Positions 1,163-11,100 of a stretch of DNA of 13,009 nucleotides are shown piece after piece (position 1 is the stretch's first letter; every line of letters starts with the position of its first letter). The notes beneath the pieces are model-generated. The model ran no database searches. It was given only the letters and a program-made list of their open reading frames with translations, and had not been told where the DNA came from. Source of the DNA: a virus (Duplodnaviria; Heunggongvirae; Uroviricota; Caudoviricetes). The stretch lies in the IMG/VR virus record IMGVR_UViG_2619619134_000011; one strand, written 5' to 3'. A program made the position numbers and the translations under genes.

Positions 1163-2824
1163 TTACACCCCGCTAAATTCTTCCAGTTTCTGGCGGTGGC
1201 TGTCGCTTATATCAAAAGCAAAATCCTCATGCTCTGCCTGGAATGTACCAAACGCCATCAGCGCCGCCACGCTCGGGTCTATCTTGTTCGGTGATTTTTT
1301 CTTGTTCGGCTTGATATTGGCGTTCGCGTCACTCTGCATCACGACGTTACTCATCGACCAGGACAACACCGGATCGCCACGATGCACAATCACCCTGCGG
1401 TTAACAAAAACTTCGAACGATTTCGCCGCCGGACTGAATCTGAGGTAGGTTTGCGGGAACGGCTCCACCTCAAAACCTGCCCCCTGTAATTGCGTTCTGA
1501 GATGCGTGGCGTTCCACGTATCAAAGCCCACCAGCCTGATATGAAATTTCTCCGCGTCCTGCATGATGTCATCTCTGATCCGGTCGTAATCAATGCAGTC
1601 GCCAGGCGTTGTGCGTATCCAGCCCGCTTTAGCCCACTGACGATAGACAGCGCGGTTTTTATTGGCGGGGTTCTGTAGCTGGAACTCCGGCAGATAATGA
1701 CGGGAAATCAGCATAATGGTTTTACCGACCGGAAAGGCATAGCATACGCTGGAAATATCGCTGGTTGATGATAAATCCAGCCCCGCGTAACACTCCTGGC
1801 CGTGTAAATCTTCCTCCGTGAACGTTCCGGCACACTCAGCCCATGCGCCGTTACCCATCCACGGGGTAGCCCCCTGGCACCAGATATTAAATCGCTTTGT
1901 CATCATCTCCACCCACTGCGACGGTATTCCCCGCGCTTTCTGGATGGTTGAGGCCAGTTTTTCACGATCGACGGAAACATCGATATTGGGATTCGCCTTT
2001 ATCCACATCGCCGGATCGTCAACCTCGCTTTCATCATCCAGCTCGTAAATCAGCACGAACATGGATTCGTTCACCTCTTCACCATCCAGTATCTGGCAGC
2101 AATAGTCGTAGTGTTGTTTACAGGCTGAAACAACGTTGCTCCCCGATGTGGTGATGGCAAATAACAGCCCCTCCGGACGCGCCCCCATTCCCAGTTCAAG
2201 CGCGGAATAAACCCCGTTGTCAGGGTGCAGGTGATATTCATCCACAATGGCAAGACTCGGGTTTGTGCCCTCGATGGTTGCCGCTTTTGCTGCCAGCGGC
2301 TTTAACAGGCTGTTGCTTTTCGGGTGCATCACCTTGTGGGCCTGAATATTCACCCGCCTGCGTAACGGTCGGGATAAAAGGCACATCTGACGCGCATCAT
2401 CAAAAACGATCCGCGCCTGGTCACGGCTCACCGCTGCGGTGTAAATATCCTGCTGCCCGTTCTCCATAATCAGAAACCAGTTAGCCAGAATCGCGGCGGT
2501 CGTGGATTTCGCATTTTTGCGTGGCACTTCGATAAAGGCGCTCGTGTATTTGCGCCGTCCGGTGGCCTTAACCTTAAAGCCGAGGATGCACGCAAAGGCG
2601 AACTGCTGCCACGGCTCCAGCTCAATGGGTCTGCCACGCATCGGCCCTTTTACGTGCGGACACACCCTGGAAAAGGCAATAAACCGCTCCACAACCTCAC
2701 GATCGAACGTGTAAAGGGGGCTTTCAAGGTCCGAAAAGTACCGTTTAACGGCCTGTTTCAGCCGTTTACAGGCCGGAATTTTGCCCGTTTTTACGTCTTC
2801 TGCGTACTTATTCCAGGCGGTCAA
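1163..2824 (-). CDS. terL: Terminase large subunit (HK97-like family)
   Basis: 553-aa ORF overlapping the terS stop by 17 nt. N-terminal P-loop-like segment (PRKNAKST) and the length and layout of phage large terminases, directly downstream of HNH and TerS. Family assignment is by recognition, not by search. Confidence 0.85.
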   Translation of the reverse strand: MTAWNKYAEDVKTGKIPACKRLKQAVKRYFSDLESPLYTFDREVVERFIAFSRVCPHVKGPMRGRPIELEPWQQFAFACILGFKVKATGRRKYTSAFIEVPRKNAKSTTAAILANWFLIMENGQQDIYTAAVSRDQARIVFDDARQMCLLSRPLRRRVNIQAHKVMHPKSNSLLKPLAAKAATIEGTNPSLAIVDEYHLHPDNGVYSALELGMGARPEGLLFAITTSGSNVVSACKQHYDYCCQILDGEEVNESMFVLIYELDDESEVDDPAMWIKANPNIDVSVDREKLASTIQKARGIPSQWVEMMTKRFNIWCQGATPWMGNGAWAECAGTFTEEDLHGQECYAGLDLSSTSDISSVCYAFPVGKTIMLISRHYLPEFQLQNPANKNRAVYRQWAKAGWIRTTPGDCIDYDRIRDDIMQDAEKFHIRLVGFDTWNATHLRTQLQGAGFEVEPFPQTYLRFSPAAKSFEVFVNRRVIVHRGDPVLSWSMSNVVMQSDANANIKPNKKKSPNKIDPSVAALMAFGTFQAEHEDFAFDISDSHRQKLEEFSGV

Positions 2825-3164
2825 GCTCGTCCTCTTCTTCTGTTTCCGGTGGATTTTTACGGCGGCTTATCGGGTCAAAACCGAGCAAGGAGGCCATTTT
2901 TATCATCACTCTTTCAGCGTCGGATTTTGCGCTTAATGCGGGGTTTCTGCTCTCGCCGCCCTGACTGTTAACAATGCTGAACCCGCGCGCCGCAAGGTCT
3001 GCAACGGCTTTCCGGTAAATGGAGTAGTTGACACAATACAGTTCCAGATTACTCCAGTCGGCGGGGGTAAGGTCTCCCCGTTCCGCAAGCTGCCGCGATT
3101 TTCCCCGCCACTGCTTCACGGCGATATCATCCAGGTAGGCGGGGGCTTTCGGTGGTCTTGCCAT
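2808..3164 (-). CDS. terS: Terminase small subunit (P27-like family)
   Basis: 118-aa ORF directly upstream of and overlapping terL. Size, acidic C-terminus and position fit a small terminase. No clear Shine-Dalgarno; the upstream region is AT-rich. Confidence 0.7.
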   Translation of the reverse strand: MARPPKAPAYLDDIAVKQWRGKSRQLAERGDLTPADWSNLELYCVNYSIYRKAVADLAARGFSIVNSQGGESRNPALSAKSDAERVMIKMASLLGFDPISRRKNPPETEEEDELDRLE

Positions 3165-3217
3165 GCTTATTTTTTCGCCAGATTATTTTTCAAAAAATTC
3201 CCGTGCATAAAAATTTG

Positions 3218-3277
3218 AGGAGGCGGTCGGTGCCCGGCGGGGTCGGGTTTGTCCTGAAAACGCCCCCCCACCCCGTC
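3218..3277. other. Candidate cos core (cosN-like GC-rich dyad) in the HNH-terS intergenic region
   Basis: The 290-bp gap between HNH stop (3455) and terS start (3164) holds a G-rich block (GGCGGTCGGTGCCCGGCGGGGTCGGG) and a C-rich block (CGCCCCCCCACCCCG) around TTTGTCCTGAAAA, giving approximate two-fold symmetry. An AT-rich tract (3165-3217) lies between it and terS. In HK97/lambda-like phages cos sits between HNH and terS. This is inference. Confidence 0.3.
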
Positions 3278-3454
3278 ATACAGCCTCATCAGCGATTGCG
3301 GAAACATTCCATAACCTCGCGGTCACGGTCGGTTAATCGCTTCGCTGTGATGCGTTCTGCGCGTCCTGACGCTTTATCTTTATGCCCTGTTTCCTGTGTC
3401 TTCCATGCGTCACGCTGCCTTATAAGTCCACGGATAAGGCGGTTTTGTTCCCGC

Positions 3455-3895
3455 TCATTCATCAGCGTCATACATCCAGTTATTGCGGTTAGCGGCCCGT
3501 TCTTCCTCCTCACGGAATCCGCCAGCGGCACGCTTGCTTTTTGTTGCCGGATCAAGCCACTTCGTTTTCTGGTTATGACACGCCTGGCACAATGGCTGAT
3601 GGTTCCATTCGGGCCAGAAGAGAACATCATCACCGCCATTAATCGGGATAATGTGATCCACCACCACGGCGGGCGTATATATCCCCTTCTCAAGGCATCG
3701 CACGCATAACGGGTTTTTACTCAGATACATGGCGCGGTATTTGTCCCACTGTCTGGAGTACCCACGCGCGCGGCGGTGTCCTCGTCTGGCATCCTCTGCA
3801 CGCCATGCCGCCCGCCTGTGCTCCTCACACTTGCCGGACTTCACGCGCCTGTTACAGCCTGGTTCTGTGCATCGTCTTAATGGTTGCCACGGCAT
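3455..3895 (-). CDS. HNH endonuclease (terminase-associated)
   Basis: 146 aa with N-terminal Cys pairs (CTEPGC, KCEEH) and an HNH core (VVDHIIP ... NHQPLCQACHNQKT). Its start overlaps the stop of the upstream connector gene as ATGA. It lies immediately upstream of terS-terL, as HNH does in HK97-like packaging modules. Confidence 0.85.
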   Translation of the reverse strand: MPWQPLRRCTEPGCNRRVKSGKCEEHRRAAWRAEDARRGHRRARGYSRQWDKYRAMYLSKNPLCVRCLEKGIYTPAVVVDHIIPINGGDDVLFWPEWNHQPLCQACHNQKTKWLDPATKSKRAAGGFREEEERAANRNNWMYDADE

Positions 3896-4191
3896 CAGTA
3901 CACCCCCACATCACGGTAAGCCGTCCAGAGTGCGCCTATCGTCATGGGTACGCGTGTTTTTGCGTTATCCGCGACAATCTGGCGATTTTCATACAGGTGA
4001 GCGATAAACATCATGCAGCCAATCTTTATGGCTGGCGTGAACGCCAGCCCGTCATCAAAGCGCCTGCCTATATGTATCTGGCACGCCTCAAGCGATGCGG
4101 CAATGTATCCGCTGATTAACTGGTCTTCCTCGTCGCCATCGATGCGGCAATGGAGTTTCACTTCTTCCAGGGTGATAAGTTCTTCTGTCAT
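3895..4191 (-). CDS. Head-tail connector protein (gp6-like)
   Basis: 98 aa with the N-terminal ITLEEVKLHCRIDGDEEDQLISGYIAA pattern typical of gp6-like connector proteins. Overlaps the upstream gene by 4 nt. Confidence 0.65.
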   Translation of the reverse strand: MTEELITLEEVKLHCRIDGDEEDQLISGYIAASLEACQIHIGRRFDDGLAFTPAIKIGCMMFIAHLYENRQIVADNAKTRVPMTIGALWTAYRDVGVY

Positions 4192-4526
4192 TTTTCCGCG
4201 CCCTCACGACAAAGAATTTCAAGGCGTGTCCTGGCGGCATCCGGCAGCGGCTGCCCGATGATATTCAGTACACGCCCCGCCAGCGGCCCCGTATTGACCT
4301 TTACCCGGCTGGTGGCGTTGATGTCCTTCCTGTAGCGTATCCATATCCTTACCGTTCCAGTCGCCAGTTCTGCACCCGATGAAATGGCCTCCTTGCTGCT
4401 GATCATGTTCACGCTTGCCCAGAGTGTGTGACCGTCCACCCACGTTTCGAGTATTTCGCCGGTTATATCCCTGGTCTGTTTCAGGGTCTGAATCGTTACC
4501 CTGTCACGCAGTCGCCCTATGTTCAT
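4188..4526 (-). CDS. Head-tail joining / head closure protein
   Basis: Track ORF 4188-4568 trimmed to the ATG at 4526, which overlaps the portal stop as ATGA. The protein (MNIGRLRDRVTIQ ... GEILETWVD ... WASV) resembles phage head-tail joining proteins. Confidence 0.65.
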   Translation of the reverse strand: MNIGRLRDRVTIQTLKQTRDITGEILETWVDGHTLWASVNMISSKEAISSGAELATGTVRIWIRYRKDINATSRVKVNTGPLAGRVLNIIGQPLPDAARTRLEILCREGAEK

Positions 4527-5734
4527 TCCGGTTTTTCTCCCTCGCTGATTTTTACTTCCTGTTTCCATGCCTGGCTGAACTCATCACCACCATCACGCGG
4601 GGACAGCCCTTCACGTTCGCGGGCTTCGTTCGGGCACATAACGCCGGATTTGATGCCGCGTTCATAGGTGGCAAAGCGTTCGCCAGGAGTGGCCCGTAAC
4701 AGGTCCGCGCTGTCAAACTCCACCTGATACCGGATACCAGGTACAGGTGAGGCCACCAGCAGGGCTTTTTTTATCTGCTGCTCAAAGTTCGCCAGCCACG
4801 GACGCATCGTCATGGTGAGAAATGCGCGGCTTGCCTCGCTGAAATTGCTGTAGGTGCTGTTGCTGTATTCCTGCAAAAAAATCGGCGAGACGTTGAACAT
4901 TCGGGCGATGTCTTCAATGGTGAAGCGACGGGAGGCCAGCCATTCAGCATCCTGATTACTCATGCCCAGCTGCTGATAGCTCATACCCCCTTCAAGGATG
5001 GGCGTTTTTCCGGCGTTTCTGGCCCCTTTGTAGCGTTCCAGTGCGGCTAATGCCTGTTTGCCCTTCACGCCGTCCAGCCATTCGCCTGACGTGATAACCC
5101 CTGCCGCCATCATGCCATCACGCATCACGCTCGCGCCGTGGCGTTGTTGGGCCAGCCCAAGCCCCAGCGATTCGCGGCAGATGGTTACAGGTGAGCGCCC
5201 CATAAAACCGTCATCCGTGGAGTAACGAAGGTGGAGAACCTCCCACGGTAAATAGTTGCGGGTGTTTCCGGTGTAGGCGTCAGTGATGCAGTAGCGCCAG
5301 TTATGCTCACCTGTCTGCTCCACGTTCACCGACTGCGGCGGGTAAGGATGCAAAGCCACCGGAAAACCATCACGCCCCCACTGAATCACCGCATAAGCAT
5401 TACCGTTTAACAGGCAGTGGCGGATCATCATTCGCTTAAACTGGTAGGGGGTTTGCCATGCGTTCGGGCGCTCGTTGAGGATGTGATCGACCGGATGAGA
5501 ATCAAGCCACTCTCGGGCCTCCTTCCCCTTCTCATTGCGTACCAGGTACAGGTAACACGGCATGGTAGCCACCGCCTCAGAGATGACCGTGACGGCGTTC
5601 ATGACGGCGGGCAGTGATTCCGCTGTCCCCGATGATACGTACTCACCCGCCCCCGTGTTCGATGTGCCAGCCAGCGCCATAAACTCATCAAGCGTCATGC
5701 TGCGCTGCTCTTTTTTTCTTCTGAAAGGCCACAT
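4523..5734 (-). CDS. Portal protein (HK97 family)
   Basis: 403-aa ORF starting 1 nt after the protease stop, with a GGGGGTG Shine-Dalgarno upstream. Size and position between protease and head-completion genes fit a portal. Family assignment by recognition. Confidence 0.8.
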   Translation of the reverse strand: MWPFRRKKEQRSMTLDEFMALAGTSNTGAGEYVSSGTAESLPAVMNAVTVISEAVATMPCYLYLVRNEKGKEAREWLDSHPVDHILNERPNAWQTPYQFKRMMIRHCLLNGNAYAVIQWGRDGFPVALHPYPPQSVNVEQTGEHNWRYCITDAYTGNTRNYLPWEVLHLRYSTDDGFMGRSPVTICRESLGLGLAQQRHGASVMRDGMMAAGVITSGEWLDGVKGKQALAALERYKGARNAGKTPILEGGMSYQQLGMSNQDAEWLASRRFTIEDIARMFNVSPIFLQEYSNSTYSNFSEASRAFLTMTMRPWLANFEQQIKKALLVASPVPGIRYQVEFDSADLLRATPGERFATYERGIKSGVMCPNEAREREGLSPRDGGDEFSQAWKQEVKISEGEKPE

Positions 5735-5735
5735 A

Positions 5736-6308
5736 TCACACCCCCGCTAAATCCGCCCACCAGCGGCGATTATCCGCACGCGGCATTTTTTCGGGGTGCT
5801 GCTCGTACAGGGAGCGGCGGGCCAGCTCCACGCCGGAATCAGGGTAAGCCGGTACGGATGTAACGGTAATTTCGTATAGTTCCGCCACCAGCACGGTGCG
5901 CACGCATGGATCTGTTGTGGTATCCCATACATCCTTACGGGAACGAAAGCCAAAGCTCATGCCGGATATATCACCTCGTTTAACCAGTTCGATAACGTCG
6001 CGCCCTGTACTGGTATCCGGTGGGGTCAGTTCAAAGCGTAACCCTGTTTCGTCCTCTTCCAGTTTCAGCGTGCCGGAACGGGTGCGCCCCAGTAACATGC
6101 TGTGGTCATGCTCATACAGGCCGCGAACGTCATTACCCGCCGCAAGCCACTCAGTAAACGCCCCCCGCTGGAATTTTTCGTAAAACTCCCCCCATAGCAG
6201 TTCTGAAAGCTTATCCCAGCGAACAACGTAGCCCGTCAGCGTACCGGCTCCGCTGGTAGTGATTTCCGATGACCGGATTTCCATACTCTTCATAATTTTT
6301 TCACCCAT
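5736..6308 (-). CDS. Prohead maturation protease (HK97 family)
   Basis: 190 aa with a His-containing segment (EHDHSMLLGRT) and a Ser motif (GDISGMSFGF) matching the catalytic residues of HK97-type prohead proteases. The start is uncertain: ATG at 6308, 6293 or 6284. Confidence 0.8.
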   Translation of the reverse strand: MGEKIMKSMEIRSSEITTSGAGTLTGYVVRWDKLSELLWGEFYEKFQRGAFTEWLAAGNDVRGLYEHDHSMLLGRTRSGTLKLEEDETGLRFELTPPDTSTGRDVIELVKRGDISGMSFGFRSRKDVWDTTTDPCVRTVLVAELYEITVTSVPAYPDSGVELARRSLYEQHPEKMPRADNRRWWADLAGV

Positions 6309-6347: not shown

Positions 6348-7505
6348 TTAATCGTCGTCCTGTGGCAGTTCCAGAATCTTGATCGCGTTCGAATCCACCA
6401 CGCCACCGCCTAAATATTTCTGCGTGAAAATTTTGATGAAGCCCGGCTCTGTGAGGTTGTCCGGTCTGGTGCGAACACCTGTTTCGTGATCAACAATGTA
6501 GTAACCGCGTTTGAAGTCACCCAGGGCAATAACGTTATCAGGCATAAACTCCAGATATTCGACCGGAAGGCCCAGCAACGTATCAGGATCACCCGCCTGT
6601 AAACGGTCGCGCCAGATGTAATCACCGTTCGCGTTCTTCACCTTCTGAAGTTTTGCCGCCGTCGTGGAGTTAACCACCCAGACCGCGTTTTTGCGGTATT
6701 TTTTACGTAATGCAAATTTCAGATCGATCAGCGGGTCCGCAGATGTCCACGCCAGAGATTCGGAAGGTTTAATTACCTGCAACGTACCAAAATCACGCTC
6801 TTTGTCGTTCTTCTCTGCACGGGGTACGGATAAAAAACCTTTTGCTTTTTTGTCACCGTCGCCCACAACCAGATCGCTTTCTTCGGTTTCCGTGAAGGTG
6901 TCGCCAATCTCACCCGTCAGCCATGAAAGGATGTCCACATCGGAAAAATCCACGATTTCCTGTGTGGTGCGCGGGTACGCATAGACCGGATACAGCTTAA
7001 TGCTCACCTCGTTAATCTGCGGGGTGCTGGTCTGTTCGCGTGTCTTACCCTCTTCACCGTGGTTAACGGTCGCACCGCCAGCGGAAACAAGCTGCTTAAA
7101 CTCGTTGCTGCTGATTTTCTTCACGGTACAGATGCGGCGCATGGTGGATTCATCCGTCAGCATTCGCATGATTTCGGTGTTCAGTTCGGGGATAACGGTA
7201 TAACCACCATCAGCGGGAACGCCTGTACTTAATGCGCGGGTTTCACCTGTCAGAATGTAGTTGCGTAGTTCTGCGGGGTCAGTGGTCTGGCTGCTTTTAC
7301 CTGGCTTGCTGCGCTCTTCGTCTGCAATGGCTTCAAGGCGGGAAATGTCTTTATCGAGGGATTCAGCTTTAGCGCGTAATTCGTCAAATTTTGCGCCCTC
7401 AGCATCGTTAAGACTGCGGTTTTCTTTTTCCGCGTTCTCCAGCATGTCGCGCATCTGATTTTTAATGGCGGTTTTCTGCTGGCGTAATTCGATTATTCTC
7501 GGCAT
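6348..7505 (-). CDS. Major capsid protein (HK97 fold) with N-terminal scaffold-like domain
   Basis: The track ORF starts at a GTG (7553); I prefer the in-frame ATG at 7505, which has AGGA 8 nt upstream, giving 385 aa. The first ~100 residues are coiled-coil-like and E/K/L-rich, consistent with a fused delta domain and with no separate scaffold gene. Confidence 0.85.
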   Translation of the reverse strand: MPRIIELRQQKTAIKNQMRDMLENAEKENRSLNDAEGAKFDELRAKAESLDKDISRLEAIADEERSKPGKSSQTTDPAELRNYILTGETRALSTGVPADGGYTVIPELNTEIMRMLTDESTMRRICTVKKISSNEFKQLVSAGGATVNHGEEGKTREQTSTPQINEVSIKLYPVYAYPRTTQEIVDFSDVDILSWLTGEIGDTFTETEESDLVVGDGDKKAKGFLSVPRAEKNDKERDFGTLQVIKPSESLAWTSADPLIDLKFALRKKYRKNAVWVVNSTTAAKLQKVKNANGDYIWRDRLQAGDPDTLLGLPVEYLEFMPDNVIALGDFKRGYYIVDHETGVRTRPDNLTEPGFIKIFTQKYLGGGVVDSNAIKILELPQDDD

Positions 7506-7724
7506 AAAAAAAGTCCTGGGGTTAAGTAAGGAACTCCAGGACGCGGCAAACACTCAACCGTTTTTCATAAGGAAATCAGTAATCGCACCGATCGTTTTCC
7601 CGCCTGGTAATGAATATTGGCGAGCACATTAACAGGCGGGAAAATGGCCCCAGCGTCCTGGCACCACGGGCGAGAATAATCATGATTCAGGTCGGGTAAA
7701 ATATGCCGTTCCGGTCAGCGAGCA

Positions 7725-9049: not shown

Positions 9050-10804
9050 TTATAAAAACGCGTCGCAATCGTCTGTTGTTATTGCGTTAGTCTGCGTTAC
9101 TCCCTTAACTTTCCGCGTAATATATTCATGTCCGTAAACTTTCGCGGCTGGCTTCATAGCCTTGCCAAAGTCATTTACGTTTAGCGGTTTGCTCCTGCCT
9201 GCGTACGCCATAAACGCCAGATAGACGCGGTAAAGGCTGTTTCTGGTCGTGTACTTCACTGAATCGCCACCGCCGCCCATCATCAGGCCGCGTGCTTCCT
9301 CCAGAAAATTCAGGAACTGGCAAAACTCAATAACCGGATCCGTCTGTTGCTTTATTGCCAGTGCTTCATCACCGTCACGCTGTTCAATGAGTAAAGCCCG
9401 TGCCTTTTCAGGGTCGGCAAAGTTCGCCAGCAAGCGGCGGATAATCACAGGGATTTCAGCCGCGATCTTTTCCGGTAGCTCCCTGTCTTTTTCTGCCTCG
9501 CTTACGATGTTATCGAACCGGAATATCACCCGACGACGTGCCACACCTCCGGCCCGTTCGGTGAATATCATCGGATTGTTATTGGTTGCCAGCACCACCG
9601 CCCTGATTACCGCCGTAAAACGCTTTTCATATTTCGGGTTAATTTCCACGGGGTCGCCGCCCGTGATTTTCTTGATGCCCGTTCCTTCGCCTGTATATTT
9701 CGGCTGGTCTGCCAGGACGATAAGACGACTCCCGACAACCTGCGCACGCCCACCAGCATCATCAAGCGATGTCATTTCAGCGCTTACCGTGTTCTGTTTC
9801 CCTGCCAGAAGGCTGGCTATGTGTGTGAATGTACTTTTACCGCTCCCGCCGTCTCCGGTGGCCTCAATAAACATCTGCCAGTCGTACCGGTTCGCCATAA
9901 TCATGTACAGCGCGGCACATATACGCATCATCTTGCGCGGGTCTTTTCCGGCTGCGTGCTCAAGCCATTTATGAAAGTTTGGCGCGTTATCGCGGATGTT
10001 CTCCCCTGGTGCTGGTGGCGTGTACTCAATGCCGTTGTGCGTGGTGATCCAGTTCTCCGGCGTGTGCGGGGAAAATTCCCCCGTTTTCAGGTCAAGCGCA
10101 CCATTGGCGAACGGCAGCAAATCGCCGGACGGCTCGCCCATTGGTTCGGCAATAACTTTTAACGCTTCCACGGCGTTATTGATTACGCGCTTGCTGAAAG
10201 TGGCCCTGTGCTCTGAATAGATCGCCACCATTTCGCGGCTAAGTTCCATTGTGCTGACCGGACACCATACCCCGCCGCGCCATACGTGAACGATTTCACT
10301 TTCAGGATGTACGCAAACGCCATCAAAGCGATCGGCAAGCAGCTGCGCGCGCTCACTGTCCGCCATCTGCGAAAGTTGCGCCTTTTGCTTTACCGGAAGC
10401 TCAATGACCAGACCATCAGAAAGATTCTGGCGCTCACGGGCCAGATATTCGCGCCAGTTCTCCACCTTCTGACCGTGCATACCCTCAGGATAAAAATTTG
10501 CATCCTGTACGCCTGCCGCCGCCAGCTTCTGGCCAATCGCCTTTATCATTACTGGCGCAAGATATCCGGCCCTGAATATGCGCACGGATTTTCTGCCTTC
10601 CGGCACAATTTGCAGCTTATCCAGTTCTGATAACTGCTGCTCCCCAAGCCACACAGGAGGCTCATTATCTCCGGCCATACGCGCATCATGTTCCTGCCAT
10701 TGTTTCGCGTGTGCCCAGGCATCACTACCCGCAAAAATAATGACTTCTGTTCCTTTGTGTTTTATGCCGCGTGACTGCTGTTTTACGTTCGGTGCCAGTT
10801 TCAT
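9050..10804 (-). CDS. DNA primase/helicase (P4 alpha-like, D5/SF3 NTPase)
   Basis: 584 aa with Walker A GDGGSGKST and a following hydrophobic-D Walker B-like segment (RLIVLAD). Its start overlaps the upstream ORF stop as ATGA. Typical satellite replication gene next to its origin. Confidence 0.8.
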   Translation of the reverse strand: MKLAPNVKQQSRGIKHKGTEVIIFAGSDAWAHAKQWQEHDARMAGDNEPPVWLGEQQLSELDKLQIVPEGRKSVRIFRAGYLAPVMIKAIGQKLAAAGVQDANFYPEGMHGQKVENWREYLARERQNLSDGLVIELPVKQKAQLSQMADSERAQLLADRFDGVCVHPESEIVHVWRGGVWCPVSTMELSREMVAIYSEHRATFSKRVINNAVEALKVIAEPMGEPSGDLLPFANGALDLKTGEFSPHTPENWITTHNGIEYTPPAPGENIRDNAPNFHKWLEHAAGKDPRKMMRICAALYMIMANRYDWQMFIEATGDGGSGKSTFTHIASLLAGKQNTVSAEMTSLDDAGGRAQVVGSRLIVLADQPKYTGEGTGIKKITGGDPVEINPKYEKRFTAVIRAVVLATNNNPMIFTERAGGVARRRVIFRFDNIVSEAEKDRELPEKIAAEIPVIIRRLLANFADPEKARALLIEQRDGDEALAIKQQTDPVIEFCQFLNFLEEARGLMMGGGGDSVKYTTRNSLYRVYLAFMAYAGRSKPLNVNDFGKAMKPAAKVYGHEYITRKVKGVTQTNAITTDDCDAFL

Positions 10805-11100
10805 TTTTTACCCCTGAATCCTTTAATCATGGTTTTCATCTTCTGAATATTGGCGCGTGCTTTCTCCCTGCTGGTGGGCACGTTACGCGGTACGGCCTGC
10901 ACAAGAGAAAAATCACGGTCGAACTGATAAACAGGCATCACGCAATCATATTCGTAACCTTCACGGCGGTAAGTTACGCACCGTCCCGCCACGCCCTTAA
11001 TCATTACCGTGCCGCCGTACTGGTCGCGGTAAATATCACCGCGCGTAAATTTAGGGTGAGTGTTGCCACTGGCAGTTAAGCCAGAATATTTAAGTTTCAT
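10801..11100 (-). CDS. Hypothetical protein (99 aa)
   Basis: ORF with GGAG upstream of the ATG, translationally coupled to primase. Basic C-terminus. No recognised motif. Confidence 0.5.
   Translation of the reverse strand: MKLKYSGLTASGNTHPKFTRGDIYRDQYGGTVMIKGVAGRCVTYRREGYEYDCVMPVYQFDRDFSLVQAVPRNVPTSREKARANIQKMKTMIKGFRGKK

Follow-up and report, generated by a model that had tools for sequence, protein, structure and literature searches.

A conserved module between the HNH and terS genes as the probable HK97-type cos site of an Escherichia coli capsid-forming PICI

We analyzed a 13,009-nt stretch of DNA (the window) from an Escherichia coli capsid-forming PICI (cf-PICI) that is EcCIEDL933-like. 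A conserved module of ~97 nt (3182-3278, minus strand), located between the genes for an HNH endonuclease and the small terminase subunit, is very probably the HK97-type cos site that this element uses as its own. Both cf-PICIs and their cos-type packaging have already been published, and the position of cos was to be expected; in the literature searched, we found no location or dissection of a cf-PICI cos site. What is new here is that the site is delimited and tied to the layout of the HK97 cos site. An earlier note on this DNA had proposed a candidate cos in the interval between HNH and terS, and this proposal was supported by a conserved module linked to these genes, an HK97 cos layout, HK97-like TerL and HNH proteins, and breaks in two virion-derived assemblies.

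Results

Genetic organization of the element

All long ORFs of the window are on the minus strand. Listed as they are transcribed, the genes for the capsid, the protease, the portal, two connector proteins, HNH, terS, and terL show the order that is characteristic of cf-PICIs:

6348-7553, minus strand: major capsid protein
5736-6308, minus strand: prohead protease
4523-5734, minus strand: portal
4188-4568, minus strand: head closure protein
3895-4191, minus strand: head-tail adaptor
3455-3895, minus strand: HNH endonuclease, gp74-like (PF01844, E 2e-8; PHROG 144, E 8e-45)
2808-3164, minus strand: small terminase terS, P27 family (PF05119, E 6e-23; ATG at 3164)
1163-2824, minus strand: large terminase terL (PF03354 and PF20441)

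A primase-family gene and regulatory genes were found further upstream in terms of transcription, and neither tail nor lysis genes were detected within the window by Pfam/PHROG annotation. Near-identical copies of the island in E. coli chromosomes adjoin phoQ and carry an integrase at the far end; such copies were present in 489 of 5426 complete E. coli genomes, O157:H7 included, with at most five copies per genome. With an integrase, replication genes, and a capsid-to-terL module, and without tail or lysis genes, the element belongs to the cf-PICIs, which are by definition islands of 10-18 kb (10.1101/2025.02.11.637232) and have EcCIEDL933 as their prototype (preprint 10.1101/2022.09.08.507074). 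Among the matches listed from the phage collection, the closest relatives of the window TerL came from other cf-PICIs (68-82% identity), and the true phages listed reached an identity of ~36% or less. We considered full-size phages carrying the same module and rejected them; the IMG/VR contigs of 35-58 kb retain the cf-PICI gene order, and the TerL identity of the true phages listed is low.

Downstream of terL, the AT-rich left end of the window, near the presumed attachment site, contains an exact tandem duplication of ATTAACTACACC with an adjacent 19-nt imperfect palindrome (174-197 and 546-583).

The HNH-terS interval and a small conserved gene

The interval 3165-3454 is bounded by the start codon of terS (ATG at 3164, minus strand) and the stop codon of the HNH gene (3455-3457). 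It had been described as a 290-bp non-coding gap between the two genes; its placement was confirmed, but it is not wholly non-coding, as a small real gene fills more than half of it:

3289-3462, minus strand: conserved 57-aa gene, function unassigned (PHROG 3173, E 9e-36, full length)

The start of this ORF overlaps the end of the HNH gene by 8 nt, and its stop is located at a fixed distance of 14 nt before the G-run block described below. Its product is a basic protein, annotated by PGAP in E. coli genomes as the hypothetical protein WP_000174068, and its C-terminus across the Enterobacterales reads ...RDRELxECFRNR, followed by the stop codon. In most Enterobacterales cf-PICIs, the ORF is kept as a protein and not merely as DNA; the comparison of loci showed that it is absent from Pasteurellaceae, Aeromonas, and one Citrobacter (L211) element. 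The 57-aa protein may be the product of the EcCIEDL933 "hypothetical gene 1792", whose mutation severely reduced transfer (preprint 10.1101/2022.09.08.507074). HK97-group phages have a small ORF at the same position, which is unrelated to the 57-aa ORF. Because the 57-aa gene occupies 3289-3462, the real intergenic gap is 3165-3288, corresponding to 124 bp.

The GC-rich block next to an AT-rich tract abutting terS, which had been noticed earlier, is a clear feature of this gap: the G+C content was 73% for 3218-3277 and 28% for 3165-3217, compared to 52% for the whole window. The two-fold symmetry attributed to 3218-3277 was weak and came down to a single 10-nt inverted repeat (3238-3247 and 3266-3275, 9 of 10 bases complementary). 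This repeat exists in the window but is not conserved in relatives, because one of its arms is located in a hypervariable spacer; the spacer of this window happens to hold a 10-nt complement of the G block. The best match between G block and spacer averaged 5.7 in relatives and 4.7 when the spacers were shuffled, and the relatives instead keep the two flanks of the spacer, a G-run block on one side and a C-run block on the other. The palindrome was therefore rejected as the functional core.

Conservation of the ~97-nt module

Relatives of the element were collected as 80 IMG/VR loci (by terS similarity), as 39 loci from one-genome-per-species bacterial genomes (via terS alignment), and as the Pasteurella elements Pmp7 and Pmp8 together with other phage-collection records. 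The comparison of the gap with related islands, which the earlier note had suggested, revealed a module shared by 32 aligned loci of Enterobacterales, Aeromonas, and Pasteurellaceae. Mean identity was 0.73-0.85 in four conserved blocks and 0.43 in the spacer, calculated for pairs of elements with TerS proteins less than 90% identical. The module and its parts are:

3182-3278, minus strand: conserved module, probable cos (nhmmer profile of 32 cf-PICI cores)
3251-3273, minus strand: G-run block GGGGTGGGGGGGCGTTTTCAGGAC (mean pairwise identity 0.73)
3234-3250, minus strand: spacer, fixed length, hypervariable (identity 0.43)
3219-3233, minus strand: C-rich block GCACCGACCGCCTCC, predicted cosN (identity 0.76)
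3208-3218, minus strand: nearly invariant TCAAATTTTTA (consensus base in at least 85% of rows in all 11 columns)
3192-3206, minus strand: GCACGGGAA and T-run, predicted TerS-binding element, cosB-like (identity 0.77-0.85)

In gene orientation, the module consists of GGGGTGGGGGAGGTTTTCAGGAC, AAA with ~17 variable nt, GGCACCGCCCGCCCCC, TCAAATTTTTA, YGCACGG, and NNATTTTTTTGAAAATAA. Its length is constant across relatives (97-102 nt), and it is present as a single copy in the window (86 bits, E 1e-26; next match 8 bits, nhmmer profile). The right half of the profile also matched weakly to TTACGCGCGGTGAT (11031-11069, minus strand; 8.2 bits, E 0.019) in the regulatory/replication part of the island; this match is possibly due to chance.

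The mean identities of terS codon positions 1, 2, and 3 were 0.75, 0.78, and 0.43. As the identities of the conserved blocks are on a par with those of codon positions 1 and 2, the blocks are under selection as strong as that acting on protein-coding positions; the spacer, at the level of the third position, evolves neutrally in sequence and is yet fixed in length, given the constant length of the module. We infer a cosQ-like role for the G-run block at the last-packaged end. Of the 13 positions of the IHF consensus WATCAANNNNTTR, 11 are matched by the TCAAATTTTTA region in the window and all 13 in the Pasteurella elements, and this IHF-like motif is a lead only.

The Pasteurellaceae elements keep the module without the small ORF. 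In three elements, from Rodentibacter (L237), Haemophilus FF7 (L240), and Bisgaard taxon 46 (L241), ~60-130 nt are inserted between an intact module and terS; the inserts contain many short palindromes, among them GATCCAATTTTGGATC and CCTCAAATTTGAGG. In the genome of Pasteurellaceae bacterium Macca, nine or more terS genes of this family are spread over several contigs (L229-L236, L245), which suggests that many cf-PICI-like elements are carried by one strain; at one of these loci (L229), no cos module was found in the 200 nt upstream of terS. The linkage of the module to its neighboring genes was also apparent from a metagenome scan, which was unbiased as to genes because the right-hand DNA motif alone was used as query: each of the 37 motif matches is followed, at a distance of 27-35 nt, by a terS homologue, and 36 of them are preceded by an HNH homologue (59-99% identity).

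In most elements, a short and constant distance separates the module from terS, as would also befit an expression signal for terS-terL (promoter, operator, antiterminator, or translational control), with the packaging site elsewhere; conserved blocks with a fixed spacer would likewise suit the binding of a regulator. We consider this reading highly improbable, as neither a sigma-70-like promoter on the gene strand, nor a terminator, nor a match to an Rfam family was found in the gap region, which folded no better than shuffled sequences (z = -0.44). Moreover, the module is intact in the three elements in which an insert separates it from terS, virion assemblies break in the module region, and its best match in HK97 is the cos junction, as presented in the following sections.

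Comparison with the cos sites of HK97 and lambda

The records of HK97-group phages start and end at cos. The last 10 nt of the HK75 record are annotated as the cos site, and it is exactly these 10 nt that distinguish the right end of the HK97 record from that of HK633. We took the 10-nt cohesive end of HK97 from the HK75 annotation and from the literature, in which the overhang is a 10-nt 3' extension and TerS binds an experimentally defined minimal site at +15 to +29 (PMC11331095). Cleavage is stimulated by HK97 gp74 (PMC9410871).

When the 32-module profile was compared with the circularized 39.7-kb HK97 genome using nhmmer, the best match was correctly oriented and spanned the cos junction (E 0.025 over model positions 8-89; E 2 for the next match). 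The score at the junction was weak (9.4 bits; of 40 locally shuffled HK97 genomes, one scored higher), and the chance of a correctly oriented top match falling on the junction is ~1 in 1000; it is the agreement in position and spacing, and not the score, that constitutes the real evidence for HK97 likeness. Alignment with the helper phage HK106 using MAFFT independently gave the same register. In both alignments, the nick region GACCGCCGCCAAA of HK97/HK106, with the nick before the following G, corresponds to ACCGACCGCCTC in the window, with the predicted nick directly after it, and the TerS site of HK97 at +15 to +29, CTAACCCGATTTTTT, aligns with the conserved GCACGG and T-run block. The distance from the G-run to the nick that follows it is 44-57 nt in HK97; in the window, counted to the predicted nick, it is 43-54 nt.

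In both systems, the site follows the HNH gene and a small ORF and precedes terS, and a nick region rich in C (ACCGCC...) is preceded by a G-run and followed, 15-30 nt after the nick, by a G and T-run element. The block sequences differ, about one third of the columns being common to the module and HK97/HK106, and the window module belongs to a tail-less satellite, not to a phage. The comparison with a helper phage cos that the earlier note had called for therefore gave a shared layout with different block sequences and a different TerS. Among the packaging proteins, the window TerL was similar to HK97 gp2 over its full length (27% identity, E 6e-47) and the window HNH protein to HK97 gp74 (39% identity, E 2e-19). 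TerS showed no BLASTP similarity to HK97 gp1; it belongs to PF05119, whereas gp1 has no Pfam family. A profile search of PDB sequences with TerS returned nothing meaningful, and a single-sequence AlphaFold model of TerS (pLDDT 52) was too poor for fold comparison. Because the window TerS is not detectably related to gp1, the transfer of the HK97 TerS site to the window is an analogy, although the G and T-run element is located at the same offset.

The HK97 alignment puts the cut where the C-rich block meets the AT-rich tract, at ~3219-3230, and not at the center of the symmetric block described in the earlier note. The nicks are predicted near 3220/3219 on the gene strand and near 3230/3229 on the other strand, within 2-3 nt. 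A cut elsewhere in the module, for example in the spacer at the center of the G-run/C-run dyad (~3240-3250), is a less likely alternative. The G-run and C-run blocks do form a rough dyad centered near 3247, nick sites of cos phages are often two-fold symmetric, and the interval missing from the virion-derived assembly described below spans the spacer as well; however, both of the independent alignments pair the HK97 nick with the C block, and a spacer evolving at a neutral rate would be an unusual nuclease target.

The lambda cos site (cosQ-cosN-cosB) resembles the module in its general plan, with elements for termination, nicking, and TerS binding beside terS, and an IHF-like motif is possible in the module as well. 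It differs in having no HNH partner, whereas the window element has an HNH gene, and in its 12-nt 5' overhangs; lambda TerS (gpNu1) is a different type of protein. The lambda cosN sequence GGGCGGCGACCT was not present in the gap, in which the best match had 3 mismatches, corresponding to chance level. With no cosN beyond chance in the gap and an HNH gene present, a lambda-type cos was rejected; of the earlier designation as HK97/lambda-type, the HK97 part holds, with the junction match, TerL, and HNH in its favor. Elsewhere in the window, 11 of 12 bases of the lambda cohesive-end sequence occur in GGGCGGCGACCC (9651-9662, minus strand). This occurrence, located within the primase-family gene at codons K-I-T-G-G-D-P-V, was discarded as a lambda cosN and is most likely incidental.

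Virion-derived assemblies of relatives break in the module region

The record vB_KppS-Ant (LR881103; L001) was obtained from DNA of a phage preparation on the host K. pneumoniae DSM 30104, sequenced with Nextera XT, and was described as a filamentous ssDNA phage (PMC8006926). It is a linear contig of 16.5 kb with a complete set of cf-PICI head and packaging genes; it starts 22 nt ahead of terS and stops just past the G block. Its ends were 100% identical to the chromosomal copy in K. pneumoniae ATCC 13883 (2.0-2.5 kb compared on each side), which we take to be the same type strain as DSM 30104, and exactly 69 nt of the chromosomal sequence, equivalent to window 3182-3250, are missing from the contig. 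The C-rich block, the predicted cosN, is within these 69 nt. vB_KppS-Ant is evidently the packaged cf-PICI KpCIDSM30104. Missing terminal bases fit a linear molecule, because tagmentation loses ends, and a permuted genome would be expected to assemble as a circle.

The Klebsiella phage record P12620-1 (PQ569648; L206/L207), a 106.5-kb "complete genome", is a chimeric virion-derived record. Its last ~16 kb belong to a cf-PICI, whose terS start codon marks the junction with unrelated sequence. As the cf-PICI part starts at base 2 of this codon and stops within the final codons of the small ORF, this record also breaks in the gap. The midpoints of the two missing intervals (vB_KppS-Ant and P12620-1) are 1 and 9 nt from the center of the predicted overhang, and these assembly breaks may point, indirectly, to virion ends at this site. 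Contig ends in the module were not found among the matches listed for two IMG/VR pattern scans, nor in the metagenome scan. One isolate-genome contig (L141) starts at the window equivalent of 3229; this is weak, because a break at a repeat boundary in a genome with several cf-PICI copies would look alike.

These assemblies also bear on whether the module could be a pac site for headful packaging, in which imprecise cuts would give permuted, terminally redundant virion DNA. A TerS recognition site beside terS is typical of pac phages too. The combination of an HNH gene adjoining terS and an HK97-like TerL is, however, a mark of HK97-type cos systems (Kala et al., 2014, as cited elsewhere), and re-annealing via cohesive ends has been reported for the packaged DNA of the close relative KpCIDSM30104 (10.1101/2025.02.11.637232). 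A permuted genome would moreover have given a circular assembly and not, as for vB_KppS-Ant, a linear contig with a defined break from which 69 nt are missing. We regard a pac site as very unlikely and return to an HK97-type cos site as the preferred reading.

Discussion

The position and the conservation of the module were observed directly, and the following scheme of packaging is modeled on HK97. After excision and replication, the satellite TerS would bind the GCACGG/T-run element, ~15-30 bp from the cut in the direction of terS. The nuclease of the satellite TerL, together with HNH, would then introduce staggered nicks in the C-rich block near 3219-3230, probably leaving a 3' overhang of ~10 nt. 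DNA would enter the small capsid made by the satellite with the terS end first, and packaging would stop at the next cos in the concatemer, where the G-run block would be on the last-packaged side.

The earlier idea of a satellite-specific cos, which would account for self-selective packaging, fits the data, as the helper-type cos of HK97/HK106 has only its layout and about one third of its columns in common with the module and the two TerS proteins are not detectably similar. HK97-type helpers such as HK106 have other cos blocks and another TerS, and packaging by each terminase would therefore be limited to its own genome. In cf-PICIs, HNH, TerS, and TerL are each needed for transfer of the satellite and not of the phage, and the packaging genes of the phage are needed for transfer of the phage and not of the satellite (preprint 10.1101/2022.09.08.507074). 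Packaging genes that are not interchangeable between satellite and phage fit the observed differences in cos and TerS.

Other satellites are also packaged via a cos site, in different ways. The cos SaPIs (e.g., SaPIbov5) and P4 copy the cos site of the helper and use its terminase, whereas the satellite studied here has its own cos, TerS, TerL, and HNH. Classical E. coli PICIs (EcCICFT073) are likewise E. coli satellites with their own cos specificity, but in these, Rpp re-targets the helper TerS to the PICI cos, and genes for terminase, HNH, and capsid are lacking.

A broader proposal, which we put forward as speculative and rather doubtful, is that the module is a near-universal packaging signal of cf-PICIs from Enterobacterales to Pasteurellaceae, that terminases of unrelated cf-PICIs could cross-package, and that the spacer or the 57-aa protein tunes specificity or efficiency. 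In this reading, the 57-aa protein, if it is indeed the product of gene 1792, would represent a new accessory factor, specific to certain lineages, in packaging of the HK97 type.

A cf-PICI makes capsids of its own and packages no genome but its own. The ~97-nt module is a candidate for the minimal sequence that makes plasmids packageable into cf-PICI capsids, and the predicted nick region and TerS element offer specific bases for mutation. The motif of the module also provides a DNA signature with which these satellites can be found in genomes and metagenomes. The layout of the HK97 cos site appears to be retained in these elements even with a TerS of a different sequence family.
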